Assembly (NCBI RefSeq): GCF_014644735.1
Contig: NZ_BMKZ01000014.1
Coordinates: forward strand, 28,966-52,965
Origin: Caldalkalibacillus thermarum
GTDB lineage: Bacteria; Bacillota; Bacilli; Caldalkalibacillales; Caldalkalibacillaceae
DNA: 24,000 nucleotides
Direction of reading: 5' to 3'
Numbering within the stretch: position 1 is the first letter of the stretch; the number at the start of each line of letters is the position of its first letter. This document shows positions 8,648 through 24,000 of this stretch, piece by piece. A program made the translations under genes and the position numbers. The notes below the pieces were generated by a model. The model saw only the letters and a program-made list of their open reading frames with translations. It made no database searches and had not been told where the DNA came from.

Positions 8648-8890
8648 TGCGGTTACCCGCCCCTCCTTGTGGGTAATGTGGGCCTCGCCAATGTTATCCC
8701 GGCTTGTCCTGTCCGGCACACTGGCTTCAACCCCGTATGCCTGTTTAATGCCGGACGGCAGTTGCCCGAAGCTGGCCCAAGCACCCCGGGGTGCCATGAC
8801 CGGGATAACGTAGCCCATTGACCTTGCGGCCCGGGCTGAGGCTGGTCAACTCCAAGGCTTCATGCCTCCGTCTTTAGACGGGGGTAGTTG
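8648..8890 (-). ncRNA. candidate omegaRNA scaffold of the IscB element
   Basis: About 240 nt of GC-rich sequence immediately 5' of iscB on the same strand, which is the canonical position for IscB omegaRNA. It is dense in local helices, for example CCGTCTAAAGACGG, GCACCCCGGGGTGC and TGCCGTCCGGCA. The long N-terminal extension of track ORF 7709..8818 falls here and lacks an RBS. The ends are not determined. Confidence 0.5.
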
Positions 8891-9165
8891 ACGACCGTCT
8901 CAATCACATCTTTTTCCGTTTCGATGGTCTCATACAAAATTCCGATCAAGTCTTCCTGAAGCTCTTGTTTGGTTTCCGGATGATTGTCCAAAACGTTTCT
9001 CAATTCCGGATCGTAGAAGATGTTCAGATTCACAAAGCATACATCTTGGCTTTCTTCCACATCTGCATCAACATGTGCCTCGCCCACAACCATGTTGTCC
9101 TGAAGTGTTATTTTTGCCGTACAAACATGATCTCCTTTGGTAATTTCTGAAAGAGTGTAACGCAT
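8860..9165 (-). CDS. acidic hypothetical protein (101 aa as found); 3' end altered by the IscB-element insertion
   Basis: ATG 9165 with AAAGGAGG upstream. The last 9 codons (NYPRLKTEA) lie inside the inferred element. Removing the element gives ...DVIETVVEF-TGA followed by a hairpin plus T-run. Confidence 0.7.
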   Translation of the reverse strand: MRYTLSEITKGDHVCTAKITLQDNMVVGEAHVDADVEESQDVCFVNLNIFYDPELRNVLDNHPETKQELQEDLIGILYETIETEKDVIETVVNYPRLKTEA

Positions 9166-9257
9166 ATTGCGTCAGCCTCCTTTAGTTTTTTTTGATGGTT
9201 TTTTTAACAGTGGAAAAGAGGAATAACAGAGCCGGATGAATCCTCCCAGCCCCGAAA

Positions 9258-9704
9258 TTATTTTTCCTCGTTTTTTCTGTCAAGTATTTCACGGCTAATT
9301 TCTCCCACCACTGCATTTTGGGGACGTTTTCGCTGGTCGGTTGCTATCAGTGTCCATACCGAATCGTGAAAAACTTCCAGCGTCTCCACGTACTTTTTGT
9401 GGAAAGCCGTGAATCTCATAGGCACTTGCCTGTACTCCTTTACTTCTTTGATATACTGCTCCAGTTTCACAAATTCTACGGCTATCTGCATAGTCCAATT
9501 TTCGTCCCTTGGTCTTTGCTCCTGCGACAGCGCATTGATCTGTTCCAGCGTTTCCGTTACGTGTGCAAAGTTGGTGTCCAGAAACTGAAAATATTCATCA
9601 GACAGTCTCCCGTTTTCTGAGGCTTCTTCACCACCAGCTTCCGCTACAACACAACCGGCAAGCATCAGTAAGGTAAACATGGCAAAAACAAGGCCTTTTT
9701 TCAC
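9258..9704 (-). CDS. lipoprotein (148 aa)
   Basis: GTG 9704 after GGGAGGGA. Signal peptide MKKGLVFAMFTLLMLAGC with the lipobox LAGC. The mature part is not recognisable. Confidence 0.75.
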   Translation of the reverse strand: MKKGLVFAMFTLLMLAGCVVAEAGGEEASENGRLSDEYFQFLDTNFAHVTETLEQINALSQEQRPRDENWTMQIAVEFVKLEQYIKEVKEYRQVPMRFTAFHKKYVETLEVFHDSVWTLIATDQRKRPQNAVVGEISREILDRKNEEK

Positions 9705-9763
9705 TCATATCCCTCCCACTTTGGTGTGTCAGACTTTAAGGGGCTGGAACGAAGCCCAACCCC

Positions 9764-10462
9764 TCACTTTTGATAAATCGACTCATTCTTGACCCACGCA
9801 TCACCCGTCCATTCGTAAAACATCTCATCAAGACTGGTTCCTTCCGTCAAATCCTCGTCTGTTGTCGCCCTGATCCTGAAATCAGACAGAAACGGATTCA
9901 AAGGGGACAGGTATTCCAGTTTTTCCGCCACGACAATGATCCGCTGTTCCGGGTTTTTGTTCCATTTCATGTACAGTAAAAGGTCATACACATCATCACG
10001 GGCCACAAACACATAATACAGCTTCTCCCCAATCTGCATGGCCCCCACAAACGGATCAAGGGACGGCACAATCTCCGGCTCGTAGTCCAGAAACACCTCG
10101 TACAGCTTAAAGAAGACCATGCATTTCAAAACGTCTTCCGCCTGCCAATGAAGCCAGTAATTGGGCGGTAACTGAAACGTATGGATGGCGTTAGTTCCCA
10201 ATGTGTAAATGGGGATGTTTTTCTCATGCGACAGTTCGTGCCGCATGAGAAAATGGTATTCTCTGCACAGTTGTTTCAGCTTCTGGGTGTTCAAATCAAA
10301 CAGTCGTTTCAACTGCACACCACCGATCACACCAACCGAAGCCACGGCATACAGCATGGGATGGAGTTCAGAAGGGATTTTGACCTCCCGTGGCCTGACC
10401 CGCTCCCGGTTCCATTTCACTTTCCAGCCATGACTCAGTGAAAAGGGACTGGCCATACCCAC
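9764..10462 (-). CDS. hypothetical protein (about 230 aa), possible divergent Replic_Relax-like winged-helix protein
   Basis: The start is ambiguous (GTG 10462 or ATG 10456). The segment LHPMLYAVASVGVIGGVQLKRLFDL...LCREYHFLMRHEL...IYTLGTNA parallels the N-terminal pattern of the 14061..15044 protein (ILRDLYRFRVMNGEQIRRLYF...WIRSRKI...VHYITDRG). The similarity is weak and was judged by eye. Confidence 0.45.
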   Translation of the reverse strand: MGMASPFSLSHGWKVKWNRERVRPREVKIPSELHPMLYAVASVGVIGGVQLKRLFDLNTQKLKQLCREYHFLMRHELSHEKNIPIYTLGTNAIHTFQLPPNYWLHWQAEDVLKCMVFFKLYEVFLDYEPEIVPSLDPFVGAMQIGEKLYYVFVARDDVYDLLLYMKWNKNPEQRIIVVAEKLEYLSPLNPFLSDFRIRATTDEDLTEGTSLDEMFYEWTGDAWVKNESIYQK

Positions 10463-10469
10463 CAGCCCC

Positions 10470-11282
10470 TTACAGCTTACGGATAATCTTGCCGTAGATT
10501 CTCTCTTTCTTGGCGTTCACATCATACACCCGCAAGATGACCCGGTCCCCTTTTCTCAGCCGCTCAAACATCATATGTGGCACTAACGCATCTACACCGG
10601 GTTCCAGATTGACAAACACACCGTAATCCTCCACACCGGTCACTTTTCCGGCGTATTCGCCGCCCTTGACGTACCGCTTGGTGCAGTCTGGATACGGATT
10701 CGGTTTCAATGCCTTGGCACTCAAGGTGACTTTCTGGTTTTCCTTATCCACTTCCATGACCTTCACCTTGAGATGGTCTCCGACCTTGAATTCGTCCCTC
10801 AAGTCGTCAATCCAAGCGTAATCAATCTCGGAAGCCGGGATTCTGACCGAAATGCCGCCGATGTCCACAACCAAGATTTTTTCCATGACGTTTCTCACCA
10901 CTGCAATCACAACCTGCCCCTCTTTCAGACGGCTCCATGTGATCTCGGCCATCCGTTCAAGGGCATCTTTCCTTGAGGCGGTGAATACGTCATTTTCCCG
11001 GTCATAGTTCAGCACCATCATGGCCACTTTGGTGCCAATGAGATTTCGCAGTTCACTCAGCTTTTCACAACCGGAGTACTCGAGTGGAATGTAGCCTCGA
11101 ACGTTCCCAACCTGCACAACTCCGCACGGCTCACCCAGCTTGTTTTCAATACCGATCAGAACAGCCTGCAAAATGGTTTTGTTCTGATAAGCCGCAATCA
11201 CTTCCTGCCAGTCTTTACGCTCTTCCTCCAGTTTTTCAGGGTCAAAACCCTCTACCAGTACTTGTAACAGTTGATCGCTCAT
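10470..11282 (-). CDS. S1 (OB-fold) RNA-binding domain protein with multiple S1 repeats (270 aa)
   Basis: ATG 11282 after GGAGGGTGA. S1-like repeats, for example GQVVIAVVRNVMEKILVVDIGGISVRIPASEI...FKVGDHLKVKVMEVDKENQKVTLS and GGEYAGKVTGVEDYGVFVNLEPGVDALVPHMM...LRKGDRVILRVYDVNAKKERI. Confidence 0.75.
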   Translation of the reverse strand: MSDQLLQVLVEGFDPEKLEEERKDWQEVIAAYQNKTILQAVLIGIENKLGEPCGVVQVGNVRGYIPLEYSGCEKLSELRNLIGTKVAMMVLNYDRENDVFTASRKDALERMAEITWSRLKEGQVVIAVVRNVMEKILVVDIGGISVRIPASEIDYAWIDDLRDEFKVGDHLKVKVMEVDKENQKVTLSAKALKPNPYPDCTKRYVKGGEYAGKVTGVEDYGVFVNLEPGVDALVPHMMFERLRKGDRVILRVYDVNAKKERIYGKIIRKL

Positions 11283-11336
11283 TCGATCACCCTCCATCTG
11301 ATTTTTTTAGGCTGATACGTTACCCAGCAAACCGTT

Positions 11337-13223
11337 TCAAAATAGTTCCTGCCTGATACGGCGTTTTTTAACCTCTTTTTTGTTTTCATCTCTGCCATTT
11401 TCTGTTTCTTCTTTTACAGCATCACCCCTTTCAAGCGGTTCATTTTGCGGCACTTCTCTTTCATGTGAATGTTCGTGTGAATGTGGCACTTCTTCTGAAA
11501 CGGATACGACAGTCTTTTCACACTCAGGGGCTGGATCGTCCGTGCCAGTAGCCTGCATTGGCTGGGAATCCAACCAGACCACACGGCCCGGTTCGCTTCC
11601 GGGTTGGCTTTGCGAAGCGAAGACAACAGGCTCCGCTTCAACAAAACGTATTTTTCTAACTTCAAAATCCGTTTTGGAGGCCTGAGCGGTGTGGCGGGCA
11701 GATGAACCGGCTGATTCACTGCCCGCAACAGGCGTCCATTCGCCCTCCACTGTCCAACGGCCGTTTTGGTCAAATGTTTTTTCCCGCTTCTTAAAAGCGT
11801 AGCGTCCCGGCTCTGCCGGGTTGGCTTTGCGAAGTGAAGACAACAGGTCAAATATTGACCGTTTTTTCACTTCCGCCCGCTCCACCCATTCCCGCCGCTT
11901 TTTCCAGTCACGAGGGATGAATCTGCCTTTGCCTATCTTCGGCGGTTGCGGTGTGCCATCTTTAAGCAATTTGTACACAAAGTGGAAACGGGGCAGGCCG
12001 TCCATCAGTTGAGTGTAAAAAAAGCGGTATTCTTCCTGCTCCGTGTCCCGATAGCTGGCCGGAAAGATGTTGGCCCCGATAACCCTCGTGTCATAGGTGG
12101 CCTGCCGGACAATGATCTGTTTCTTGCCAAATTCCTCTGCAAATTCTTTGGCATCTTCGCTGGTTATGCCGCCAAAACAGATTTTGTTGCGACAGCCGTT
12201 CAGTATGGCCCGCTTTACGGCTCGACCACTCATCTTGCCCGTCTCCACTTCCAACTGGCTCAAGGATTGGCAGGCAAAGATACCGGCCACCCGGTACTCG
12301 GCCGCTATGTTCAGAAAACGCTCAATGTCCGGGTTGATATACCGGGAATACTCGTCCACGATGAGAAAGTGGGGGACACGGGTCTTTTCCGTCCCCCCAC
12401 GCCTGAATGTCCCTGATTGCAAATGCATGATGATGTACTGGCCAAATGCGTCCCCGCTTGAACCCAATTCGCCCAAAGCCGTGTTGACCGCCAAAATGCC
12501 ACCTTCTTCAAAGTGACGATCTATGTCAAAACTGGATTCTCCCGTCATGATGGAACGCAAATGACGGTTGGCCGTGAGATTCTCCAACTGGGCACGAAGC
12601 CCGATCACAAACTGGCGGTATTTGTCTTTCATGGCCCCCAACAGTTCCGCCTTGAAAAACTTGGTCAGATCATCTTCTCCCTGCCGGTTAACCAGTTCGT
12701 TCACCTTGTATTCCAACAGCTTCAGATCACGCAAGGTGTTGACCACGTCTCCCAAATCCAGACGGTCACCCTGAAGCCGTTTCAACAGCTTGGTCACGTT
12801 GCGGGCCGATACTTCCTGCACGGTGGCGAAAAAGGCTTCCTGTTTGCCAAACAGGCTCTTTAACACCGCCACCGTGGCCTCGGCTACGGTATCTTCATCT
12901 CCCACCATCGGGTTGAAACGGTGACTCTCATAGGACGGATCATAACCGGCACTTTCTGCATACCCACGCTTCTGTGCCGGGTCTATATGCACAAAGTCAA
13001 GTCCCATTTCCTCACACATCTCCCGTACCATAAACGCCACGTCCCCTTTCGGCTCAATCACCGAAAGGCCCAGTTTCTTACCCTTGGCTTTCTGCACCAA
13101 TAGATTGTAAATGATTGGTTTCAAAATGGTTGCCGTCTTTCCACAACGAGTGGGACCCACCACCAGCATGTGGGTAAAAGCGTCACTCCCACCCCAGATG
13201 ATCGGCCTGTCCAAAATCAACAC
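11337..13223 (-). CDS. VirD4/TraG-type conjugative coupling ATPase (T4CP) lacking an N-terminal TM domain, with a long acidic/His-rich C-terminal tail
   Basis: Walker A VVGPTRCGKT lies about 20 aa from the N-terminus. Walker B PHFLIVDEYSRY. Also FACQSLSQLE and NKICFGGITSEDAKEFAEEFG, typical of TraG/TraD/VirD4 proteins. The start codon is uncertain: GTG 13223 directly abuts GGGAGG, and TTG codons lie a few nt downstream. Confidence 0.8.
   Translation of the reverse strand: MLILDRPIIWGGSDAFTHMLVVGPTRCGKTATILKPIIYNLLVQKAKGKKLGLSVIEPKGDVAFMVREMCEEMGLDFVHIDPAQKRGYAESAGYDPSYESHRFNPMVGDEDTVAEATVAVLKSLFGKQEAFFATVQEVSARNVTKLLKRLQGDRLDLGDVVNTLRDLKLLEYKVNELVNRQGEDDLTKFFKAELLGAMKDKYRQFVIGLRAQLENLTANRHLRSIMTGESSFDIDRHFEEGGILAVNTALGELGSSGDAFGQYIIMHLQSGTFRRGGTEKTRVPHFLIVDEYSRYINPDIERFLNIAAEYRVAGIFACQSLSQLEVETGKMSGRAVKRAILNGCRNKICFGGITSEDAKEFAEEFGKKQIIVRQATYDTRVIGANIFPASYRDTEQEEYRFFYTQLMDGLPRFHFVYKLLKDGTPQPPKIGKGRFIPRDWKKRREWVERAEVKKRSIFDLLSSLRKANPAEPGRYAFKKREKTFDQNGRWTVEGEWTPVAGSESAGSSARHTAQASKTDFEVRKIRFVEAEPVVFASQSQPGSEPGRVVWLDSQPMQATGTDDPAPECEKTVVSVSEEVPHSHEHSHEREVPQNEPLERGDAVKEETENGRDENKKEVKKRRIRQELF
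11600..11630. repeat. 31 bp direct repeat, copy A (partner at 11817-11847)
   Basis: CGGGTTGGCTTTGCGAAGCGAAGACAACAGG versus the same sequence with one C-to-T change at 11817-11847. The offset is 217 bp, so the two copies are translated in different frames of the T4CP tail. Confidence 0.85.
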
Positions 13224-13319
13224 CTCCCAAAAACATTGTCACAAATGGGGCTGGAAGGTATGGGGCTGGCAGGGATGTGGGAGAAGATTCGGCCCTTGCT
13301 TAGCAAAGTCAATCACTAT

Positions 13320-13355
13320 TGGAATATGGCGTTCAAATGGAATATGGCGTTCAAA
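13320..13355. repeat. perfect 2 x 18 bp tandem repeat in the spacer between the 4-TM gene and the T4CP gene
   Basis: TGGAATATGGCGTTCAAA occurs at 13320-13337 and 13338-13355. Nearby, ATGGGGCTGG occurs twice (13245-13254 and 13260-13269). Confidence 0.85.
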
Positions 13356-13369
13356 ATGGCTTTTGTTCT

Positions 13370-13870
13370 CTATCGCTTCTCGTCCACTTCTTCTCCCAAA
13401 ACAAGGTATATCTCATCTTTTTTCTCACTGTCTCCCTCTCCCTTCAGCCATTTCCTGAACCGCTCCCACTTCTCTTCAAATGACTGAGTCCCCTCAACCA
13501 GCTTTTCCTTGTCCACATTGCCACGCTTGTATCTAAACGCTGTCACTGCCCGCCAGTAAACAAAGACAAATCCCAATAAGACCATGAACATTAAAATGTA
13601 GACCACACGCATGACAATGACCGGGGCCACAAAAAAGTCCCGCTCATTCCAAAAGTGATAAACGCTGGTTCCCAACAAACCGGACACGTAAAAAACAGCC
13701 GCCACCATGTGCAGGTACGGCTGTTTCCGCTCATCCACATATTCAAATACTCCCGCTATAACGCTGATCACCAACAGTGTCCACCACACCCACTTCGGCA
13801 ATAACCATGCACCGCTTACCAACAAAACGGCACTGATTAATGCCAACACCAAATTCGCCTTCCCTAACAT
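13370..13870 (-). CDS. integral membrane protein (166 aa, about 4 TM segments, charged cytoplasmic tail)
   Basis: ATG 13870 after GAGGGGAG. Hydrophobic stretches LVLALISAVLLVSGAWLL, WWTLLVISVIAGVF, LHMVAAVFYVSGLLG and VVYILMFMVLLGFVFVYW, then a Lys/Glu-rich tail. Confidence 0.75.
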   Translation of the reverse strand: MLGKANLVLALISAVLLVSGAWLLPKWVWWTLLVISVIAGVFEYVDERKQPYLHMVAAVFYVSGLLGTSVYHFWNERDFFVAPVIVMRVVYILMFMVLLGFVFVYWRAVTAFRYKRGNVDKEKLVEGTQSFEEKWERFRKWLKGEGDSEKKDEIYLVLGEEVDEKR

Positions 13871-14067
13871 CAGTTCACTCCCCTCATGCCCTCCTTCCGT
13901 ATGGTGTACTCGTACATGTGGATAACAAATTCGATTTCATCGGCCATGATCTCACGCATCATCAGGTATATCTCCCACTGTTCCTCCGGGGTGTATTCCA
14001 TCAATTGTTCTTTAATATCTGGTATGTTCACTATTTCACAAATGGTCTTCAGGCCCTCAATCAGCAT
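13870..14067 (-). CDS. small acidic hypothetical protein (65 aa)
   Basis: ATG 14067 lies 8 nt after AAGGAG. It overlaps both neighbours (7 nt and 1 nt), which suggests translational coupling. Confidence 0.6.
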   Translation of the reverse strand: MLIEGLKTICEIVNIPDIKEQLMEYTPEEQWEIYLMMREIMADEIEFVIHMYEYTIRKEGMRGVN

Positions 14068-15044
14068 ATTCCCAACTCCTTATCCGTGATTTCGATAACC
14101 TCAATCCCCCGCATGTCTTTTAAACGCTCTTCAATGTCGTAACTGAACAACTCATGTGTAAACACCATGACTTCCTTGTCGTGCCGCTCCCTTTTCATCC
14201 TGTCCAACAACGCCAAATCGTTCATCATCAGATCGGCCACGTATTTTTCAGATTCCCCGCATCGAATGATGTAGGGATACACGCTTTTTAAATGATCATG
14301 ATTCTCTCTTGCTTCACCATGTTTTGTGATTAAATTCACAAGGTGTTGACTCCCTTGGTAATGCCTTAGATACTGACACGCAAATCCAAACGGCATCAGA
14401 CAGGCACTCGCCAGTACATGACTGTCCATCATGCCCAAAAATTCATCGTAACTCTTCACGCCTCTAAATAATATCAGGTTCCGACACAAGGGCACTTCCA
14501 TTGTGTTTTTTTCCGCTTCAAAAAGCACACGCCTTAAAGTGCTTTCCCGTGCTCCACCCTTGATGATGTACACAAAATATTCATTTCCATCACGGTCTAT
14601 GATGGAACCTTTGTACAAATCTCCCCGATTGGTACGGTACTTCTTCTTCAGTTCCCGTGAGTCGACAAACGTGTATCCACTGTCTTTCAACTCCACATAC
14701 AGGTCTACAAAATCCAGATAACTGTCCATGTTCTCTTTCTTGATATGCAAATCCTTAGCCTCTATTTCCTCATCACCTATTAACTGATGTTCCCGCAATA
14801 CCCTTAATCCCCTGTCTGTAATGTAATGCACCGCTTCTATCCTGCTTGCGTCCGATAAATGCCGTGCAATCTTCCTAGACCTTATCCACCCGCTGTTCCT
14901 CATGATATATAGCTTGCGATAGGTATACGCTTCATGCTCCCCAAAATACAACCGCCTAATCTGCTCCCCGTTCATTACCCTAAACCTGTATAAATCTCGC
15001 AATATCCCCAAATCCCGCTCCGTCACCTGCTTGATTACCTGCAT
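14061..15044 (-). CDS. Replic_Relax (replication-relaxation) family protein, 327 aa
   Basis: Track ORF 14061..15290 starts at an RBS-less GTG. ATG 15044 follows AAAGGGGAGAAGTG. The N-terminus VTERDLGILRDLYRFRVMNGEQIRRLYFGEHEAYTYRKLYIMRNSGWIRSRKI...VHYITDRGLRVL fits the winged-helix pattern I associate with that family. Confidence 0.6.
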   Translation of the reverse strand: MQVIKQVTERDLGILRDLYRFRVMNGEQIRRLYFGEHEAYTYRKLYIMRNSGWIRSRKIARHLSDASRIEAVHYITDRGLRVLREHQLIGDEEIEAKDLHIKKENMDSYLDFVDLYVELKDSGYTFVDSRELKKKYRTNRGDLYKGSIIDRDGNEYFVYIIKGGARESTLRRVLFEAEKNTMEVPLCRNLILFRGVKSYDEFLGMMDSHVLASACLMPFGFACQYLRHYQGSQHLVNLITKHGEARENHDHLKSVYPYIIRCGESEKYVADLMMNDLALLDRMKRERHDKEVMVFTHELFSYDIEERLKDMRGIEVIEITDKELGIC

Positions 15045-15186
15045 CACTTCTCCCCTTTCACCATGGCTGTCTTGGCTGTGGTTTTTTCCTCCGGCTTTGC
15101 TCAGGCTCGACCCAAGGTCTCGCACCGCAAATCCGTCCGTCAAAACCACACTCCCTTCAAACCGAATGACTGCCTCCCAACACAAA

Positions 15187-15302
15187 ACCTTTACCGTAAA
15201 ATCGGGATGGCTGTCTGTGTTTACTCCGTCTACCTTTACGGTAGCCGTTCGTAAACACACCGTAAAAGAGAACACCTGTTCCGTTTGCACCTTTACCGTA
15301 AA
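15187..15302. repeat. array A: ACCTTTAC(C/G)GTA repeats built on the palindrome TTTAC-N-GTAAA
   Basis: ACCTTTACCGTAAA at 15187-15200 and 15289-15302. ACCTTTACGGTAGC at 15232-15245. An ACCGTAAA half-site at 15259-15266. Confidence 0.8.
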
Positions 15303-15359
15303 CCGTTTGGACAGAAACTCGATAAAAAACTGATATAAAAGCGATTGTAGCCCATCTTG

Positions 15360-15562
15360 TTCATGTCAACTTGACATGAATTCCTTTGTTTGGAGCTTCC
15401 GGCAAACCACTCCTTCTGATCCGCTTTAATATAAAAGGCATTTTTCGGTTACTAAAACACCGTTATTTGACATAAACCGCCCATGTCAAGTGGTCAACCC
15501 AGAAAATTAGGGGGTTCTTGACATGAAAAAACTCAATTTTAAGCCTTAAAAATCGTGTCAAA
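15360..15562. repeat. array B: TTGACAT(G/A)AA motifs, including a perfect 21 bp palindrome
   Basis: TTCATGTCAA-C-TTGACATGAA at 15360-15380. Further copies at 15467-15475 (TTGACATAA), 15482-15490 (inverted), 15518-15527 (TTGACATGAA) and 15555-15562 (inverted, degenerate). Confidence 0.8.
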
Positions 15563-15572
15563 TAGCACCGTA

Positions 15573-16295
15573 TCAGAACAAAGATTCTTTTAATTTTGGG
15601 TTCCTTTTTCTCGGAGACGGATCATCGTCATAGCCGTCATTATCTTTATCGTTTTTACCCAGACTGAGATTCAGCATGTGTTCTTCAAAAGTTGTTTCAT
15701 TTTCCTGAGTTTCTGCTATGGCAAGAGAACGGTTCCTTAGTTCCATAAGGTAATTGTTAAAAAAATCACCAGAATTACTGACTTCAAGCACATACATCTG
15801 CACCTTTTCTTTTTCTCCCCTAAGCCCTATTTCTGTACACGACAAGTAGCACCAATTATCATCGTGAACATAACCTCCCGACCGAAGGTTATCAATAATA
15901 AATTTCGTATATCGGTTATCAAGGTCACGAATGATGCGGTTTTTGAAATAATGCAGGATAAAGACATGAACCTGATCAAATACATGTTTTTTAGGAACGT
16001 GAAGATTGGCCAGATTAAAGGCATGTTGGTAAACACGCTTTACTTTGTTTCGTATGTTCATTTGTTCATCATAATGAGGCATCATCCCCGGATATTCAAC
16101 CAACAGAACGGGATAATCAAAATCTTCCTGCCATTCAACCTTGCATGGGATGACTTCTTTAATCTGCTCATAACGTTCTTTTGACTGCACATCCCGGTAC
16201 AGGAACCATTTCAGACCTTCCAACCAGCGTGTGTAAAGCTCTGTCCTCAACCTCTCAACCTGCTCAATCGCCTTTGGATAGGGCTTGTAAAACAT
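15573..16295 (-). CDS. RusA-like Holliday-junction resolvase domain protein with extended N-terminus (240 aa)
   Basis: ATG 16295 after AAAGGAGGAA. The core IRDLDNRYTKFIIDNLRSGGYVHDDNW matches the RusA signature (compare E. coli RusA [27 protein letters not shown]). The protein is roughly twice RusA length. Confidence 0.55.
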   Translation of the reverse strand: MFYKPYPKAIEQVERLRTELYTRWLEGLKWFLYRDVQSKERYEQIKEVIPCKVEWQEDFDYPVLLVEYPGMMPHYDEQMNIRNKVKRVYQHAFNLANLHVPKKHVFDQVHVFILHYFKNRIIRDLDNRYTKFIIDNLRSGGYVHDDNWCYLSCTEIGLRGEKEKVQMYVLEVSNSGDFFNNYLMELRNRSLAIAETQENETTFEEHMLNLSLGKNDKDNDGYDDDPSPRKRNPKLKESLF

Positions 16296-16309
16296 CTCGA
16301 TTCCTCCTT

Positions 16310-16537
16310 TGTCCGACACGTTTTTGCTTATATATCAAGGGTTGAACGGAAGTCTGTCCGACAAAATGAACAGATCGAACCGCCCGTTTTACAAGATGAA
16401 GACGTTTGTCGGACAGACAACCCGAAAACCATTGATATAAAGCCATTTGTTTGTCCGACAAGTAAAAATCCTTATTCTTCCATTTGTCAGACACATGTCC
16501 TGTTTTTGGCTTTATGTCAACGTTTTTGTGTCGGACA
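16310..16537. repeat. array C: six copies of the 9 bp palindrome TGTC-N-GACA
   Basis: TGTCCGACA at 16310-16318, 16355-16363 and 16452-16460. TGTCGGACA at 16407-16415 and 16529-16537. TGTCAGACA at 16485-16493. Spacings are 33-52 bp. The array fills the whole 245 bp gap between two genes. Confidence 0.85.
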
Positions 16538-16540
16538 ATG

Positions 16541-18001
16541 CTAACCAATGGTTTTGATGTTCTCCTGAGTTCGGGGCAAAGCCGATAAAATCGTTTTGGT
16601 GGCAAACTCAAATTCCCTTGCCGCCGTCTGGTCAATGTGAATTACCGGACGGCCGTAACGCATGGCCACCAAGTGAACGGGCAGGTCACTCAACACCAGA
16701 TCAGCGTTCATTCTCAAACGTTGTTCCTGACCTGACTCCAACACGTTGGGGACAAACCGGTTCAGTACCCTCAACAGACGCTTACCCTGCCATGCTTCCC
16801 TGTGCTTTTCGCATATCTTCTGATGGTGTATGTCCATGTCCTCCACATAGACCACCAGCACATTTTCCCAGTGCATGACCATGTTCCAGCGGTCAAAAGG
16901 CAGGTCAATCACCCGGTAATGTCCCTGATTGTCCATGTTTTCAAACGTCTCAATATGCAGGTTGGGATAACCCTGTACCTGCCCGTTTTTACCCACTGGC
17001 ATGTCCAGATATGTCCATAACGTGGTTTCTTCCTGAAAGCTGACCAGTTTGGTCAACGTCCCCTGTTTGCTTAAGGTTGCGGCCAGATTGAGTGCCACAT
17101 ACGTTTTGCCCGTGGTCAAGGGAGACGTGACGATAATGTTGTATCCCTGTGGTTCCTGCTGAGCAAAGCCTGTCATATTGGGGCTGAAGTGAAAGACAGG
17201 TTCATTTTTGTTTTTATCAGAGAACGAATGTATTTCTTCTTTAACCGCACGTTCGTCTGACTGAACGGTTTCTGCCGGAGTGTGAATCTGATGTTGGTTT
17301 AACCTGTTTTCATCATGCTCATTGGGCTTTTGGGCTTCAGATGGTGTTACCGGGACGGGTTCAAATGACCAAGCTTGCAGAGTGTCCTGTTTCTGTTGTG
17401 CCGGTTCCTGTTTATGCAACGGCTGATTTTCTTCTTTTCCAAAGGTAAAAGTCCATGCAGGGGGCTGGACGGAACTGTGGGGCTTTTGGCCGGGTTCCTG
17501 TGCCGTTTGATGATCTGTCTTTTTCTGAACCGGGTCTTTTTTCTTTTTCCAACCAAACCATGCCCATTTTGAGTGATTGGTGTCTCTGTCATTTCCCTCA
17601 TCCGTGTCCTCCACATCCCCTTTTTCCAACCGTTCAATTTTTTCTTCGGCCATGCCCAGTGTAGCCGGAAACTCGATGGCAAAACGGATTTTTTCTTCCG
17701 TCACCGGATCAAGAATATAGTCATATACCGAAAGTGGAAGCCATTTTTCCCTGATCTCCTTTGGCTTGGTATGACCAACAAGTACGACTACCCTGACACC
17801 GGCTTTCCTTAACTCGTACAAAAGCTGTTCAAAAGGCATGGTTCCCTGTAACAGGGGAGACAAAAAAGCCAGTTGTGGCCGGTTTTTCTTAAGTTGCAAC
17901 AATACCCCTTCACGATAGGCAACGGGAGGCAGGTTGCCGCCTGCCACCCTCTGGATCATCTGGTCAATCTCCTTTTTTCCCGTGGCAATGATGATGTGCA
18001 T
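16541..18001 (-). CDS. TadZ/CpaE-like protein: atypical receiver-like N-domain, Gln/Pro/Glu-rich linker, ParA/MinD-like C-domain with deviant P-loop
   Basis: ATG 18001 after GAGGGGGAA. The N-domain has a receiver-like layout (HIIIATGKK...LAFLSPLL...VVVLVGH...VYDYILDPVTEEKI) but lacks the acidic pocket and phospho-acceptor Asp. The C-domain NIIVTSPLTTGKTYVALNLAATLSKQG ... HYRVIDLP resembles the ParA/MinD/CpaE Walker A and B regions, with LTTGKT in place of GGxGKT. Confidence 0.5.
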   Translation of the reverse strand: MHIIIATGKKEIDQMIQRVAGGNLPPVAYREGVLLQLKKNRPQLAFLSPLLQGTMPFEQLLYELRKAGVRVVVLVGHTKPKEIREKWLPLSVYDYILDPVTEEKIRFAIEFPATLGMAEEKIERLEKGDVEDTDEGNDRDTNHSKWAWFGWKKKKDPVQKKTDHQTAQEPGQKPHSSVQPPAWTFTFGKEENQPLHKQEPAQQKQDTLQAWSFEPVPVTPSEAQKPNEHDENRLNQHQIHTPAETVQSDERAVKEEIHSFSDKNKNEPVFHFSPNMTGFAQQEPQGYNIIVTSPLTTGKTYVALNLAATLSKQGTLTKLVSFQEETTLWTYLDMPVGKNGQVQGYPNLHIETFENMDNQGHYRVIDLPFDRWNMVMHWENVLVVYVEDMDIHHQKICEKHREAWQGKRLLRVLNRFVPNVLESGQEQRLRMNADLVLSDLPVHLVAMRYGRPVIHIDQTAAREFEFATKTILSALPRTQENIKTIG

Positions 18002-18033
18002 ACAATTCCCCCTCTGCAATCATTTTTTGTTGC

Positions 18034-18324
18034 TTAAGGTGCGGTGCTGACCAAATCTTCAAGAATCTGTACAATTGTCGGGGCCAGCCAAACCAAGATA
18101 AAACCGAAAATAGCCATAATTAGAGTACCGCCTCCGGCTCCCCTCATACGTGACGAACCAAACAACATCCCCACAATCAGTACAATGCCACCTAATCCAA
18201 ACATCACTAGAAAGATTGGTACGCTGATCTGTTGCAAAAGATAGAAAAACTGCAAGATAACCCCAACCAACCAGTCCGTAAACTGCTCCAATGACATTGG
18301 TCTGATCTCAACATTGCGTTCCAA
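18034..18324 (-). CDS. small membrane protein (about 96 aa, 2-3 TM), possible TcpE/ConC/VirB2-position component
   Basis: Track ORF starts at GTG 18333, abutting AAGGAGGG. TTG 18324 has 9 nt spacing. Hydrophobic segments WLVGVILQFFYLL, VPIFLVMFGLGGIVLIVGMLF and LIMAIFGFILVWLAP. The functional role is inferred from size and context only. Confidence 0.55.
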   Translation of the reverse strand: MERNVEIRPMSLEQFTDWLVGVILQFFYLLQQISVPIFLVMFGLGGIVLIVGMLFGSSRMRGAGGGTLIMAIFGFILVWLAPTIVQILEDLVSTAP

Positions 18325-18922
18325 CGTATACACCCTCCTTGAAAAATAGATAACCCTGTGCCATCAACACGTTGCTGTCAGTCAGTTGTTCAAATTCCCT
18401 TTTGTCTTCCACCCCCTCCACGATAATTGACCTCTTTTCTTCCTGCAAAAACTTCTGACACCACTTTTGCTTAATCTCATCAACATGCACCTTGAATCCC
18501 GTCACATCCTGTTGTTTCCAAAAGCTGTATGTCCGTTCGGTCACGTCATCCACCCACACTTCCAGCCCCCTGCTTTTGAACTTCTCAATCAAGGAGGGAA
18601 TCCGGGCATATGCATTTGGTGGTTTTCCAGAGAGATTCCACTCCACAATTTCAATGCCGCCATCCCAGACAAAGGAAGACTCAGCCAGAAAGGGAAGGCT
18701 GTCCAATGTAATGTTGATCAGTTTTGGAAAAAAGGCCTGCATTGAAAGTGCCTTTTCAATGCAGACCCGTTCCCTGTCCCACAAAGCATATACATCAGTC
18801 ACATCAAAATACCGCCCAACACTCATACCCGTTGGACGGCAAAGATATTCTTCGTATACCGTTTCCCTTTGAGACAAATGGACAACAGGCTCCTTTGCCA
18901 TCTTAATCTCTGTTTTTACCAA
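18308..18922 (-). CDS. stand-alone minimal EAL-like domain protein (204 aa), probably degenerate
   Basis: TTG 18922 lies 7 nt after AAGGAGGGGA. EAL-domain landmarks appear in the correct order: INITL (N of NLS), IEIVEW (ExTE), GLEVWVDDVTERTYSF (DDFGTGYS region, degenerate), FKVHVD (KxD), IIVEGVEDKREFEQL (EGVE), AQGYLFFKE (QGYxF). The EAL triad position reads YAL, and the segment after it is shortened. Confidence 0.5.
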   Translation of the reverse strand: MVKTEIKMAKEPVVHLSQRETVYEEYLCRPTGMSVGRYFDVTDVYALWDRERVCIEKALSMQAFFPKLINITLDSLPFLAESSFVWDGGIEIVEWNLSGKPPNAYARIPSLIEKFKSRGLEVWVDDVTERTYSFWKQQDVTGFKVHVDEIKQKWCQKFLQEEKRSIIVEGVEDKREFEQLTDSNVLMAQGYLFFKEGVYVGTQC

Positions 18923-18942
18923 CAGATCCCCTCCTTAAAAAA

Positions 18943-20559
18943 TCAGTAGACAAATTGCAAATAAGGCATGGGATCAACCGGTGAACCGTTGATCCGCACT
19001 TCAAAGTGCAAATGAGGCCCCGTTGACCTGCCTGTACTGCCAACCGTTCCAATAATCTGACCCCTAAGAACATCATCTCCCACTCTTACTGATGTACTCC
19101 AAAGATGGGCATATAATGTTCTCAATCCTGAACCATGCTCAATCACCACGTAATTACCATAACCTCCGCCGCATGATTGATTGCCTTCACGACAATGGCT
19201 TACAACCGTGACCACCCTACCGCTTTCCGCCGCCACAACTGGTACATGACGGGGAGCGCCGATGTCCACGCCGTTGTGAAAACTTCTCTGTCCCGTTATG
19301 GGATGAACACGAGGGCCGAATGGTGACGTGATCCGGCTGTGACCGGGGACCGGCCACGCAAGCTGACCACTGCCTCCACCAACCGTCATAGTTTGTGATA
19401 AACTTAATACTCTGTCAGCATAGGCATAACTTCCGCCCGAATAACGATACAAGGCCTGACGTGGATCTTCATTGATACCCAATACTGACAGATAATAGGC
19501 CGCACTATAAATGGCATCAATCGGGTTGAACGGGTCAGCTTTGCCGTCCCCATCCCCGTCAATGCCATAAATGGCCCATGTAGAGGGAAGAAACTGCATT
19601 AACCCTTGAGCTAACTCTCCCGTCCGGTTGGGCGGCCCCACCGCATTTGGATTAAATGAAGACTCCACAAAGGCAACCGCTACTAGTATCATCCAGTCCA
19701 CATTGTATCTTTTCCCCGCATCCTGAAAGGCCTGTATCCATTCCGGCGGAAGATTGGAAAAGTCAATGCCTCCAATGTTGAGATAGTTTGAATAACCGGG
19801 CATTCCTATCAGAAAGCCAAAATGTTCATTTCCCGTTCCGGCGGAAAATGCCGTTTCTAAAATCAGCGTCCGGTCATCTTCACTGACCCGATCCATGTCC
19901 AGATAACGTTTGATCACATCATCCAGACGTTCGTAACTTTGTTTAAAATCAATGCCGGATACCACTTCCTGTGTAATTGTCACTTTGGTGTTATCCCATT
20001 CATACTCAACCGTTTCCCATTCATAGGAATAGAAATATGTTCCCCGAAAGGTGTCGGCAGTGACCAACAACAGAACCTCATCAACAACTGTCTCGGTTTC
20101 CACAACCTCTTCCTGTACAATAACCGTCTCACCCGTTTCATCCACTTCTTCCTTTTCAACAATCTTTTTTGTTTCAGTCACAATCGTAATGGTACTGTCC
20201 TTGTATTCAAACTTCGGAGCCAGTCTTTCAGCAAGCCTCCTGATATTGTTGTAAGGAAGCTCACCACTTCTTTCCAATTCGGCACTGTACAAGTCAACTG
20301 CATAAACAAGACCCCAGTGCAGTTTGTATTTTAATTCTTCGGCATTGTAGCTCTTTACACCCGGAAAAGCACTTTCCGCCGCTTCAAGATACTTTTGTCT
20401 CAAAGCCTCATCTTCTTCATTTGCTTCATTTGATCCGGTAAGATCACCCATCGCTACGTTGCCAAAAAATGCGGAAATGTAAAGAATGGGCAAACCTATC
20501 AGAATCCCAAATACAATCACCAAAACAACAACAACAATTCTGAGCCGTCTATTCCTCAT
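18943..20559 (-). CDS. membrane-anchored bifunctional cell-wall hydrolase (SLT lytic transglycosylase + M23 peptidase), T4SS-associated
   Basis: N-terminal TM IVVVVLVIVFGILIGLPILYI. SLT motifs VAFVESSFNPNAV, GLMQF and AAYYL. M23 motifs HNGVDIGAP, GNYVVIEHGSGLRTLYAHL and GSTGRSTGPHLHFEV. Confidence 0.9.
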   Translation of the reverse strand: MRNRRLRIVVVVLVIVFGILIGLPILYISAFFGNVAMGDLTGSNEANEEDEALRQKYLEAAESAFPGVKSYNAEELKYKLHWGLVYAVDLYSAELERSGELPYNNIRRLAERLAPKFEYKDSTITIVTETKKIVEKEEVDETGETVIVQEEVVETETVVDEVLLLVTADTFRGTYFYSYEWETVEYEWDNTKVTITQEVVSGIDFKQSYERLDDVIKRYLDMDRVSEDDRTLILETAFSAGTGNEHFGFLIGMPGYSNYLNIGGIDFSNLPPEWIQAFQDAGKRYNVDWMILVAVAFVESSFNPNAVGPPNRTGELAQGLMQFLPSTWAIYGIDGDGDGKADPFNPIDAIYSAAYYLSVLGINEDPRQALYRYSGGSYAYADRVLSLSQTMTVGGGSGQLAWPVPGHSRITSPFGPRVHPITGQRSFHNGVDIGAPRHVPVVAAESGRVVTVVSHCREGNQSCGGGYGNYVVIEHGSGLRTLYAHLWSTSVRVGDDVLRGQIIGTVGSTGRSTGPHLHFEVRINGSPVDPMPYLQFVY

Positions 20560-21970
20560 TCACGTCTCTCTCCATAGTATAGTTGATAATCCGTTTTTCC
20601 TGAGACTGTTCACCTTCCGATTTGGAAATAGGCTGAGCAGACGGGGTCACGTTGAATACATTCATGCTTGAAGTGCCAGTTGAAGGTGCATAATGCCTTT
20701 GAGACTGTTGCCTTTGAGACTGTATGGTTTGAGACTGTCTGGCAGGTGCATTCACTCTGGACGCTGTATTTGTAATATGAGTCCTTTCACCTTCGGTTCT
20801 TAAAACTGAAGAACCAGAAGTTTTATATCCACTGTATGATGAGGCTTTTTGAAATTGAATAACGTTTGAACGCCGGACACCGGAACCAGACCGAATATTG
20901 GAAGACATATACGATTGTGGAGACTGATAGTTGTTTTTAAATGGAAGTGAAGCAACTTTTACCGCTCCAGATGACGCTGTTCCAGACGCTGAAGCATATT
21001 GGGATGTTCCAGATGTTCCATATGTTGAAACTCTTTGGGACGTTCCAGACGCTGAAACTCTTTGAGCGGTATTTGTATTGATATGACCGCCTAAGACGGT
21101 TCCTGAAGAAACTGATTTTCCTCCCATTGCCGAACCCATGCTGATAATCCGGCGTGACTGTGATGGCGTTCCACTCTTGACGGCAGAACCACCAACGGTT
21201 GAAAAAGAAGTCCTTCCTCCTGTTGGAACTGATGAAAAAGAAGTCCTTCCTCCTGAAGTGTATCCGTTAGACGTGCTTCCTCTTGCCACTACTGAAGAAC
21301 TTTTTCCAACAGGCAGGTTGTTTTCACGGCCGCTTGTACGCCACACGGCCATTCCATCGGTCCCTGTTGCTGACAAAGATTGTTTTGTCATGTTCTCCAG
21401 CCCTTGCTGAACCCCCTGTTGAACAGGCTGGTTAAAATCTTTTTGCATCTGTCCTGTTTGATGTTCTGGCAGATAACCATATATTTTGGGAGAATTTGTT
21501 TCCATCCCATGCAATTCAGACAACGGTGATACACCATCACCAAACGATACCGAACCATCATTACCTGTGGCTGTTAATGAACCGTTGTTACCTGAGGCCG
21601 TCAATGGTGTTTTTCCGGCTTTGGCGGCAATATCCATATCGCCCATATTGCCTAAAGAACGTTCATTGCCGATTCCCGTTAAGCGATCCGGGGTTCCGGC
21701 AGGCTGGGCGGGAGAGCCGGAAATAGGGCCGGGACTTGAACCTCCACCTCCACCGCCGCCTTTACCAAAGGCCATTTTACCGATACCAACCGTTCTGAAC
21801 GCACTTTTCAGCATTTGACTGGTGGCCCAAAGGCTGTTACCGGCTTCATCAATTGGATTGCCACGGTCAAACATGTCAAAAAGAGCATAAATGAACCTGC
21901 GGAGGAAACGCCCCGCAGGTAACAGGATAAACAATAAAAACAACGCCTGTATAAACGTAAACTGGAACAT
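20549..21970 (-). CDS. N-terminally anchored Gly/Ser/Thr/Gln-rich low-complexity protein (473 aa)
   Basis: ATG 21970 after GGGGGGA. N-terminal TM FIQALFLLFILLPAG, a GKGGGGGGGSSPGP run, then long S/T/G/Q-rich sequence with internal repeats. A 22 bp exact DNA repeat lies at 21201-21222 and 21234-21255, encoding GGRTSFS twice. Confidence 0.7.
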   Translation of the reverse strand: MFQFTFIQALFLLFILLPAGRFLRRFIYALFDMFDRGNPIDEAGNSLWATSQMLKSAFRTVGIGKMAFGKGGGGGGGSSPGPISGSPAQPAGTPDRLTGIGNERSLGNMGDMDIAAKAGKTPLTASGNNGSLTATGNDGSVSFGDGVSPLSELHGMETNSPKIYGYLPEHQTGQMQKDFNQPVQQGVQQGLENMTKQSLSATGTDGMAVWRTSGRENNLPVGKSSSVVARGSTSNGYTSGGRTSFSSVPTGGRTSFSTVGGSAVKSGTPSQSRRIISMGSAMGGKSVSSGTVLGGHINTNTAQRVSASGTSQRVSTYGTSGTSQYASASGTASSGAVKVASLPFKNNYQSPQSYMSSNIRSGSGVRRSNVIQFQKASSYSGYKTSGSSVLRTEGERTHITNTASRVNAPARQSQTIQSQRQQSQRHYAPSTGTSSMNVFNVTPSAQPISKSEGEQSQEKRIINYTMERDVNEE

Positions 21971-21980
21971 AATATCCCCC

Positions 21981-23144: not shown

Positions 23145-24000
23145 GACGTTTTCCTTCCTCCGGGAGTCGTGTTTACAAACTCATGTTCATAAAAAGAAGC
23201 ATCAATACGAATCGAAAGCAAATTTTTCCCGATCTTCAACAACGCTTCACCGGGATGGGCACTTTCAAGAAACTGCCTTTGCCCATCAGACAAATGGTAC
23301 TGAGCCTGCACATATTCAATGTCTGTCTCATTCTGTTTGAGCAAAACAGTGGCTGAAGCGTTAGTCAAAACGGCTTTACCCTGCTGTGATCTGGTAAACT
23401 CTTCAAAGGATTGAGAAGCCACGCAAAAGCTGGTGTTTCTTTTGCGACAACGTCTGCTCATCTTCTCCAGAAACATGGCCGAATCCTCGTGATACATGTA
23501 CATCCACGCTTCATCGGCCACCACCAGCTTACGCACATGACGGTTCCGCTTGACAAATTTCTCCCATATCCAGTTTAGAATGACGTGCATGGCCAACGGC
23601 TTCATAATCCCCTCTTCAAGATGTGAAATGTCAAAGTCAATGGCCACGGCATCTTTCAGCCGCACACGGCTTTGTCCGTCAAAAAGACCCAACGGGTTTC
23701 CCCTGCGATAGGGAAAAAGCAGTGTGGCCAGACGTTGGCCAACTTCCGTCCCCTGTTCCTCCAGCCACTCAACGGCTTCACTGATGGTAGGCATCTCTTT
23801 TTTGCGGTAGCCCACATACCCCGGACGGGGATCAGGCTCATAAAGGGAGTTGGGGTCAGATGTAATCTGCCGCTTGCTGTATAAGGACATGATACACCGA
23901 TCCAGTACGGCGTTTTCTTCCGGTGAAAGACGATAGCCGCCATTATTGGTGAACATGACGTTAAACAGGTTCTTGATGTCCTGCATTTTCTCGTGCAGAT
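23141..24000 (-). CDS. VirB4/TrsE/ConE/TcpF-type T4SS ATPase, C-terminal about 286 aa (5' end beyond window)
   Basis: The reading frame is open upstream of the track's ATG 23986 to the window edge (..LHEK-MQDIK). Walker B-like KLVVADEAWMYM, FCVASQSFEEF and VLLKQNETD match the C-terminal half of VirB4-family proteins. Confidence 0.8.
   Translation of the reverse strand, partial: LHEKMQDIKNLFNVMFTNNGGYRLSPEENAVLDRCIMSLYSKRQITSDPNSLYEPDPRPGYVGYRKKEMPTISEAVEWLEEQGTEVGQRLATLLFPYRRGNPLGLFDGQSRVRLKDAVAIDFDISHLEEGIMKPLAMHVILNWIWEKFVKRNRHVRKLVVADEAWMYMYHEDSAMFLEKMSRRCRKRNTSFCVASQSFEEFTRSQQGKAVLTNASATVLLKQNETDIEYVQAQYHLSDGQRQFLESAHPGEALLKIGKNLLSIRIDASFYEHEFVNTTPGGRKTS

Follow-up and report, generated by a model that had tools for sequence, protein, structure and literature searches.

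Background

The Replic_Relax family of proteins (PF13814) is the MobC family of CONJscan, i.e., the MOBC relaxases (PMC5357655), and has been placed in the PD-(D/E)XK nuclease superfamily (PMC3424549). The prototype of the MOBC type is TraX of plasmid pAD1, a relaxase in which a winged helix is combined with a restriction-endonuclease-like domain; TraX binds five direct repeats located 70-120 bp from the nic site, and a covalent intermediate was not detected (PMC12857230). Here we analyze a 24,000-nucleotide stretch of the genome of Caldalkalibacillus thermarum (contig NZ_BMKZ01000014.1, positions 28,966 to 52,965 of the forward strand; hereinafter, the window) that encompasses a Replic_Relax-family gene (PF13814; 14061..15044, minus strand) coding for a candidate relaxase of 327 amino acids (aa). 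The 528-bp gap that precedes this gene (15045-15572) contains two sets of short repeats and two hairpins, and sequence comparison and analogy with known systems lead us to consider it, with moderate confidence, the origin of transfer (oriT), the place where the relaxosome assembles, in a conjugative element closely related to the one in the chromosome of C. thermarum TA2.A1.

The layout with which this gap is best compared is found in pTEF1 (NC_004669), a pAD1-like plasmid that is typed as MOBC by PLSDB. The traX homolog of pTEF1 (18114-18899, minus strand) is preceded, along the direction of transcription, by the stop codon of the gene for the type IV coupling protein (T4CP), about six tandem 12-bp repeats CCTAAAGGTATG (19735-19658) and a 142-bp compound inverted repeat (19639-19498). 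This arrangement reportedly fits the published descriptions of oriT2, and the nic site of pAD1 is said to be located inside the large inverted repeat. The window shows the same succession in the same orientation, namely, the stop codon of an upstream gene, short repeats, a large inverted repeat and the (candidate) relaxase gene. The likeness extends to the protein, which belongs to PF13814, shares the winged helix with TraX and is encoded by a T4CP-linked gene, and in which a restriction-endonuclease-like fold is predicted to follow the winged helix, as reported for TraX (PMC12857230). There are also clear differences. The window contains a second class of motifs, TTGACAT; its inverted repeats are 44 and 74 nt long, as opposed to 142 bp in pTEF1; and its Replic_Relax protein, with 327 aa against 261 aa in TraX, has an extra C-terminal domain. 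Furthermore, a RusA-like nuclease, an S1-domain protein and a putative paralog of about 235 aa are co-conserved in the window family whereas no gene annotated as RusA or S1 is listed beside traX of pTEF1, and the relatives of the window element are called non-mobilisable by MOB-suite whereas pTEF1 is assigned to MOBC.

Two other groups of elements are relevant. By description, MobC/MobB of CloDF13, the Gram-negative case of MOBC, likewise belongs to an atypical, non-HUH group of relaxases with a relationship to restriction endonucleases although CloDF13 is a small mobilisable plasmid, in contrast to the apparently self-transmissible Firmicutes element considered here. Bacillus plasmid-prophages (Tyrovirus/Thrax phages, Izhevsk, and phage G with its gp146) resemble the window in the combination of Replic_Relax, T4CP and ParM and in their similar partner genes, but the Replic_Relax genes in these genomes are annotated only, and no oriT has been described there; a tblastn search against phage genomes (E 1e-3) gave no match. 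A MOBC relaxase with an oriT that consists of repeats and an inverted repeat is already known. What is new is a clade in which the protein is larger, its catalytic half is unalignable and which is missed by MOB-suite, along with the co-conserved RusA-like nuclease, S1 protein and paralog and a site with two motifs and two hairpins.

A repeat-rich gap in the conjugation operon

The gap is bounded by the TGA stop codon of the upstream gene (15573-15575, minus strand) and by the ATG at 15044, which is preceded by a strong Shine-Dalgarno sequence AAGGGGAG (15050-15057); the position of the gap directly upstream of the Replic_Relax gene is the one given in the initial annotation, where it was also described as free of open reading frames (ORFs). 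Mechanically, this is not the case because a 100-aa ORF with a TTG start (15031-15333, plus strand) crosses the gap and a GTG extension of the Replic_Relax ORF reaches 15290; however, neither is likely to be coding since the relatives carry indels there. That the gap is the longest non-coding stretch in the window could not be established, given that the segment 1514-2131 likewise lacks any ORF of at least 50 aa. The minus strand carries all genes from ~9.2 kb to 24 kb, in a tightly packed conjugation gene chain where the other intergenic distances range from -26 to 221 bp, the 528 bp of the gap being the largest. We conclude that the gap is a real intergenic region in a tightly packed minus-strand conjugation operon.

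The first set of repeats, array A, consists of a half-site (15258-15266) and three copies of TAC(G/C)GTAAAGGT that repeat directly when read along the sense strand of the genes (15289-15302, 15232-15245 and 15187-15200, minus strand). The sequence ACCTTTACCGTAAA occurs exactly at 15187 and 15289, the third copy at 15232 reads ACCTTTACGGTA, and the half-site at 15258 is CACCGTAAAA. The two exact copies, the third copy and the half-site had all been noticed previously, but the middle copy, taken at that time for an inverted variant, is a direct repeat on the gene-sense strand and forms the tip of a hairpin (hairpin A, below). All three occurrences of TACCGTAAA and its complement in the 24 kb are inside the gap, and so are all three copies in the window of the heptamer TAAAGGT, the core of array A, each on the sense strand.

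Array B comprises six TTGACA(T/C) sites in both orientations, of which two are the arms of a perfect 21-bp palindrome, TTCATGTCAA-C-TTGACATGAA (15360-15380), and the remaining four are located at 15555-15564 (minus strand), 15518-15527 (plus), 15482-15490 (minus) and 15467-15476 (plus). Perfect palindromes of 21 bp are expected by chance about 0.02 times in 24 kb, by our own calculation. The palindrome agrees with the initial annotation; the consensus TTGACAT(G/A)AA proposed there for four additional copies fits only two of these (15467 and 15518), the others being TTGACATGG (15482-15490, minus strand) and TTGACAC (15555-15561, minus strand). The segment 15364-15561 accounts for six of the 17 TTGACA hexamers and five of the nine TTGACAT heptamers of the window, and the largest family of 9-mers in the gap, with at most one mismatch, has six copies, a number reached in none of 200 shuffles. 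Both sets of repeats are real and far above chance.

That TTGACA looks like a -35 box is incidental: no spacing fits, two of the sites have a -10-like hexamer but at no more than 14 nt, a feature that is not conserved, and at the corresponding positions the other lineages bear unrelated motifs. In this respect, the earlier view of these hexamers as protein-binding sites that lack a properly spaced -10 box is borne out. A single-strand (Frpo-like) promoter was set aside on the same grounds. A search of both strands of 15045-15572 detected no sigma-70-type promoter, ten homologous gaps contained no consistent -35/-10 sites of a sense-strand sigma-A promoter, and a search of the gap against Rfam with E up to 1 produced no match. 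Pairing of the flanking A repeats as an outer stem was considered as well; the window can fold in this manner but two of its closer relatives (L001 and L002) cannot, and we treat the A repeats as binding sites. Sequence comparison thus supports a role of the gap as a cis-acting, protein-binding DNA site rather than as a promoter.

Conservation of the gap in related loci

A comparison with intergenic regions beside other Replic_Relax genes, an approach proposed in the initial annotation, was performed for ten related loci, two of them ~2.2-kb contigs, and revealed a conserved layout. The identity to the window Replic_Relax protein declines from 91% in the chromosome of C. thermarum TA2.A1 (L015; CP082237.1, 3,106,756-3,127,433) to 72% in a contig assembled from a sequencing run (L001; Logan), 58% (L002), 47% (L007/L006) and 32-28% (L010, L012 and L014) in metagenome contigs, and about 26% in two Brevibacillus plasmids (L004, NZ_CP034542; L005, NZ_CP032411), so that the whole range is 91% to about 25%. 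The Replic_Relax gene is preceded by a gap of 330-530 bp in all ten loci and, where the contigs reach, the genes follow the order type IV secretion system (T4SS) genes, RusA-like gene, gap, Replic_Relax gene, one or two small ORFs, T4CP gene, S1 protein gene and the gene for a ~235-aa protein. The exception is L010, in which the RusA-like gene is replaced by two small ORFs.

Within the gap, the order along transcription, from the RusA-like gene to the Replic_Relax gene, is an array of 9-10-mers and then a long hairpin inverted repeat. Each gap contains four to six lineage-specific 9-10-mers at similar positions, and the hairpin that follows has an unrelated upper-stem sequence in distant lineages. 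The array B sites are kept in position and sequence in L015, L001, L002 and L006/L007, and the central 21-bp palindrome is conserved in the window's lineage, where its central base alone varies. More generally, the substitutions in this lineage spare the TTGACA(T/C) sites, the TTTTACGG/TAAAGGT repeats and the two hairpins. The array motifs of the more distant loci are ATGGGTAAA in L010, TGTTCTAACAC in L012, TTCTGACAT in L014, GTTTTTACC in L004 and GTTTATATAC in L005. Such switching of the motifs with the lineage, with position and architecture fixed, suggests co-evolving protein-DNA recognition.

The earlier account of the gap did not include its two hairpins, which on the sense strand precede the Replic_Relax start codon by 30-170 nt. 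Hairpin A, detected by inverted-repeat search and folding, is a compound inverted repeat of 44 nt (15216-15259, minus strand) flanked by direct repeats with the core TAAAGGT. Its outer stem GTTTAC/GTAAAC (15219-15224 with 15251-15256) is followed by a tandem G.A internal loop and an inner stem CTACC/GGTAG (15230-15234 with 15240-15244) closed by a 5-nt loop. In an alignment of five sequences, 95.7% of the cells are paired and compensatory double changes are found at three pairs, a covariation score reached by none of 500 shuffles; C. thermarum TA2.A1 shows a further compensatory change, A-T to G-C, at the tip of the hairpin. Analogs with differing upper stems were recognized by eye in L012, L010, L014, L004 and L005, and L012 retains the hairpin base GTTT(T)GC-GA...GGA-GCAAA(A)C. 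Hairpin C (15077-15150, minus strand; folding z = -3.5), an inverted repeat of 74 nt, is limited to the closest lineages: the core GCGAGACC-TTG-GGTCGAGC (sense-strand reading; plus-strand positions 15104-15123) does not vary among L001, L002 and L015, the stem carries matching insertions in both arms across the relatives, and the hairpin is absent from L006/L007. G.T wobbles, two in hairpin A and one in the L002 version of hairpin C, are on the gene-sense strand, as would be expected equally from transfer of this strand and from a function of the hairpins in RNA. Taken together, the gap is conserved next to the Replic_Relax genes in every relative examined.

The closest of these relatives, in C. 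thermarum TA2.A1, has a gap 94% identical to that of the window and belongs to a chromosomal element of a thermoalkaliphile available in culture. Because its T4SS cluster harbors an inserted DDE transposase, this copy of the element may be impaired. The plasmids of B. marinus (NZ_CP034542; L004/L008/L009) and B. laterosporus (pAZOBL1; L005) are complete, 100-130 kb in size, and both carry a T4CP, Tad/Flp-like pilus genes, ParM, topoisomerase IA and the RusA-like/Replic_Relax pair, to which the B. marinus plasmid, examined in full, adds a VirB4-like DUF87 ATPase and a RecD-like helicase. Among the genes that PLSDB lists for this plasmid, there is no further relaxase, and four plasmids with relatives, including NZ_CP034542 and NZ_CP032411, are typed as non-mobilisable by PLSDB/MOB-suite. 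A megablast search of window positions 9000-24000 against plasmids gave no match. The family is small, with 194 clusters (50% identity) out of 1.84 billion representatives and a protein length of about 320-350 aa throughout; a protein-pattern scan of GTDB genomes detected no relative, and a metagenome scan yielded one locus. So far, the family is found in Paenibacillaceae megaplasmids, in a Caldalkalibacillus chromosome and in metagenomes. Our search of the literature yielded nothing on its elements beyond annotation.

The proteins encoded around the gap

The match of the Replic_Relax protein to PF13814 (30.9 bits against a gathering cut-off of 25.3) covers only model positions 1-111 of 191, that is, the DNA-binding half, and P0003 and P0004 show the same partial match. 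In the AlphaFold2 (AF2) model (predicted local distance difference test score, pLDDT, 94.5; predicted template modeling score, pTM, 0.90), a winged helix (residues 9-85) is followed by an alpha-beta-beta-beta-alpha-beta unit (103-193) that appears restriction-endonuclease-like and by an extra alpha/beta domain (215-327). A Foldseek search retrieved PadR, MarR and HpaR with a probability of about 1 for the first domain; for the middle domain, it retrieved NucS (2vld; 0.94), PspGI (0.63) and Cas4-like proteins, with weak E-values. In the viral structure library BFVD, entries named 'Nuclease' and 'Restriction endonuclease' were matched with probabilities of 0.9-1.0 and, again, weak E-values for the nuclease part, and gp146 of Bacillus phage G matches the model with an E-value of 6e-9.

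A BLASTP comparison with the TraX homolog of pTEF1 detected no similarity. When, however, profiles of the 63-sequence window family and a 29-sequence TraX family were compared with hhalign, residues 10-119, which comprise the winged helix and the helix after it, aligned with residues 18-113 of TraX (probability 95.8%, E 7.7e-9), which indicates that the two winged helices are homologous. By these sequence comparisons, the window protein is a remote, very divergent member of the MOBC-type family. The initial annotation had left open whether a Replic_Relax protein could substitute for a relaxase; this role is established in principle for the PF13814 family, which is the MOBC family, with pAD1 TraX and CloDF13 MobC as examples (PMC5357655, PMC3424549, PMC12857230). 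The absence of a canonical relaxase, noted at the same time, stands: no classical relaxase was found among the window proteins scanned.

On the other side of the gap is a gene (15573..16295, minus strand; 248 aa in the ORF list), likewise missing from the earlier account, for a protein of the RusA-like Holliday-junction-resolvase family, which is the conserved upstream neighbor of the gap. Translation probably begins with the ATG at 16295, which follows AAAGGAGG; the mechanical ORF extends to a GTG at 16319. The protein contains RIIRDLDNRYTKFIIDNLRSGGYVHDDNW and matches the PHROG family phrog_34, 'RusA-like Holliday junction resolvase' (E 6.6e-9), and its AF2 model (pLDDT 72) matches the structures of E. 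coli RusA (1q8r_B, 1.00; 2h8c/2h8e, 0.99). Residues R131, D132, D134, N135, R136, D154 and W156 are invariant in 16 homologs, one of which is named 'RusA family' by NCBI, and L133 and D153 are nearly so; we take the acidic residues to correspond to D70, D72 and D91 of E. coli RusA. Searches of Pfam, NCBIfam and PDB sequences with the sequence or profile were negative, and RusA was recovered by PHROGs and by the fold search alone. Judging by the profile match, the predicted fold and the acidic signature, the protein is RusA-like. Along with the RusA fold and the RDLDN...DD signature that it has in common with E. coli RusA and PHROG 34, it differs from E. coli RusA in an N-terminal extension of ~85 aa and an acidic C-terminal tail, and its gene lies inside a conjugation operon, not in a phage recombination module. 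The RusA-like gene is a neighbor of Replic_Relax in L001, L002, L006, L012, L014, L004, L005 and L015. A full-text literature search gave no paper that connects RusA with relaxosomes.

The conserved last member of the module, as judged by synteny, is a 232-aa protein (9764-10462, minus strand) that had initially been counted as a second Replic_Relax protein. It has no Pfam hit, to Replic_Relax or otherwise, and what connects it to Replic_Relax is a weak profile-profile signal (hhalign probability 41%, E 2.7e-4, colinear over 168 columns), by which it is possibly a distant paralog.

The next gap upstream (16296-16540), between the RusA-like gene and a gene for a 492-aa protein, contains six TGTC(C/G)GACA palindromes (16310, 16355, 16407, 16452, 16485 and 16529). 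All five exact copies of this palindrome in the window are in this gap, and the array is conserved in C. thermarum TA2.A1. The palindrome at 16310-16318 abuts the ribosome-binding site (RBS), and an extended -10-like element, TGaTATATA, is located just upstream of it. By its sequence, this gap looks like an operator-like array and a better candidate for transcriptional control than 15045-15572. The 492-aa protein (16541-18019, minus strand) has no family hit; when its translation was read by eye, a receiver-like N-terminus and a ParA/TadZ-like P-loop, TSPLTTGKT, with the appearance of a deviant Walker-A motif, were noticed. Compared by position, the counterparts of this gene encode a 471-aa protein in L015 and a 461-aa protein in L010.

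A candidate origin of transfer and the alternatives

The analysis establishes the anatomy of the gap, its conservation and covariation, its gene neighborhood and the folds predicted for the proteins encoded on both sides of it. The following scheme of its function can be envisaged. Element-encoded, sequence-specific proteins would load onto the short repeats: the winged helix of the Replic_Relax protein probably binds the direct repeats with the TAAAGGT core, as TraX does with those of oriT2, and the Replic_Relax protein or a second factor, e.g., the 232-aa protein, may occupy the TTGACAT array. The resulting nucleoprotein complex would drive strand opening and the extrusion of the hairpin at 15216-15259, aided in this lineage by the one at 15077-15150. 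A site- and strand-specific cut might then be introduced in or beside the hairpin by the nuclease-like domain of the Replic_Relax protein, through MOBC-type chemistry, or by the RusA-like nuclease, and the cut strand would be passed to the T4CP encoded just downstream. With regard to binding, the TAAAGGT core is suggestive: in pTEF1, it occurs in three of the approximately six direct-repeat units, in the same orientation, and these account for three of its six copies in 50 kb, which suggests that the Replic_Relax winged helix binds at the A repeats.

Several observations weigh against this assignment. The correspondence of the TAAAGGT cores was noticed after the fact, and the window repeats are dispersed and partly bidirectional, unlike the five or six tandem 12-mers of pAD1 and pTEF1; in L014, L004 and L005, the statistics of the arrays are marginal. 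In the hhalign comparison with TraX, only the N-terminal half aligns, the catalytic halves giving a non-significant probability of 0.8%. The residues reportedly catalytic in TraX (E28, D152, E170, E172, K176, R180, Y181 and Y203) are invariant in the alignment of the 29-sequence TraX family but have no demonstrable counterparts in the window protein family, which conserves instead D128, S129, R130, K133 (100%), R140, Y156, Y159 and E176; in addition, the canonical acidic positions in beta-2 and beta-3 of the nuclease fold are poorly conserved in the family. The contig is 71 kb long and the window 24 kb, which leaves room for a classical relaxase elsewhere. Finally, no terminator was found on the minus strand after the upstream gene, and read-through into the gap is therefore likely; the gap is probably transcribed with the operon, and the hairpins could act in RNA.

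The last point leads to the least unlikely of the rival explanations, to which we assign a low probability, namely, control of the DNA-processing operon by the gap at the transcriptional or post-transcriptional level. The repeats would then be operators of a regulator encoded by the element, possibly with autoregulation by the winged-helix protein, and the hairpins would affect mRNA stability, processing or translation. Apart from the read-through, the position of the hairpins shortly before the start codon on the sense strand and the G.U-compatible wobbles there are consistent with such a role; PadR/MarR-type winged-helix proteins are usually regulators, Replic_Relax itself has been termed 'a predicted transcriptional regulator' (PMC3424549), and the module includes a protein with an S1 RNA-binding domain. 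Yet no sigma-A promoter was detected in the window gap or in those of nine relatives, a match in Rfam is lacking, four to six bidirectional sites over 200 bp exceed the requirements of an operator, and, in 16296-16540, the operon already has an operator-like array that overlaps an extended -10-like element and an RBS. The two functions are also compatible, given that oriT regions often hold promoters. Hence, of the two roles offered in the initial annotation, oriT or master control region, the first agrees with the layout of a MOBC oriT2 whereas the second finds no promoter evidence in its favor and would be better filled by 16296-16540.

Two further possibilities dissociate the gap from the initiation of transfer. 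A vegetative replication origin, with the repeats as iterons bound by a Replic_Relax initiator, seems very unlikely to us. The gap contains no DnaA box (with at most one mismatch) and no AT-rich unwinding element (a block with more than 75% AT), its GC content being 0.44, and the repeats, although they resemble iteron origins in being 9-14-mers beside the gene for a DNA-binding protein, are bidirectional and irregularly spaced. The name of the family comes in part from a plasmid-replication annotation in pUA140 (PMC3424549), and the B. marinus plasmid is without an annotated Rep gene; however, the Replic_Relax-bearing Bacillus phage-plasmids have a separate replication initiator (PMC9703825), and the gene is within a T4SS/T4CP cluster at every locus, including the chromosomal copy of C. 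thermarum. Even less probable, in our estimation, is a centromere-like partition site of the ParA/ParM type or a recombination, multimer-resolution or junction site for the RusA-like nuclease. Short bidirectional repeat arrays are typical of plasmid centromeres, and ParM genes are found two to three genes upstream in the Brevibacillus plasmids and L006, but there is no adjacent ParM/ParR in the window, L015 or L010, and parC is normally located upstream of parM, not two genes downstream. The apparent deviant Walker-A motif, seen by eye in the upstream 492-aa protein, and the cleavage of four-way junctions by RusA, combined with the capacity of the gap to extrude cruciforms, also can be cited in favor of this possibility; the tight, universal linkage, though, is to Replic_Relax and T4CP.

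Within the preferred assignment of the gap as an oriT, there is also room for a relaxosome of a new type, in which winged-helix proteins on the repeat arrays would extrude the hairpin or cruciform and the RusA-like nuclease would do the cutting, alone or with the Replic_Relax protein. We regard this variant as doubtful. If true, the chemistry would be neither of the HUH/tyrosine kind nor that of canonical TraX, and the existence of plasmids that carry T4SS and T4CP but are typed as non-mobilisable would be explained.

The identity of this site has practical implications because relaxase-based typing is the standard test of the mobility of plasmids and islands, and the whole clade escapes such typing: elements in which we find a T4SS-type ATPase and a T4CP and, in the closest ones, the full VirB4-VirB6-hydrolase set are nevertheless called non-mobilisable. 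Definition of the oriT and of the DNA-processing proteins would extend the poorly understood MOBC family, would provide a testable model in which a restriction-endonuclease-like protein and a junction resolvase start conjugative transfer, and would supply a cis-acting site for mobilizing DNA into thermophilic Bacillales. The availability of the cultivated C. thermarum TA2.A1, with its 91%-identical copy, makes such experiments feasible.

Other genes and features of the window

Profile scans of the window proteins identify a Gram-positive type IV secretion cluster, all of it on the minus strand. Upstream of the genes discussed above, a library scan detected the C-terminal part of VirB4 (23141-23986), a VirB6-like protein (21981-23144) and a cell-wall hydrolase with SLT and M23 domains (18943-20559). 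Downstream of the Replic_Relax gene, there are genes for two small proteins (13870-14067 and 13370-13870), of which at least the larger is apparently membrane-spanning, as read by eye from the translation, followed by the gene for the VirD4/TraG-like T4CP (11337-13223; PF02534, PF12696), with synteny in L004, L005, L010, L014 and L015. The S1/OB-fold protein (10470-11297; PF00575, E 1.2e-18) is encoded immediately after the T4CP in every case of synteny in the relatives and possibly is a single-strand binder.

Also within the T4SS cluster, a 204-aa protein (18308-18922, minus strand) shows a partial match to the EAL domain of 30.6 bits, below the Pfam cut-off of 31.3, and a 204-aa protein with a weak EAL match is present at the equivalent position of L015. 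At the other end of the window, the region 1-2800 contains almost no convincing ORFs, and it is followed by a thymidine kinase gene (2818-3378, minus strand); L015 likewise has a thymidine kinase gene downstream of its module. Finally, a HEARO RNA (Rfam RF02033, 149 bits; 8673-8892, minus strand) is located immediately upstream of a protein with RRXRR and HNH domains, the two forming an IscB-type pair. The IscB-type protein is apparently split into ORFs of 369 aa and 94 aa (7709-8818 and 7352-7636, minus strand), and the RNA and the protein gene are in a GC-rich island, with a GC content of ~0.53 compared to 0.35 in the flanks.

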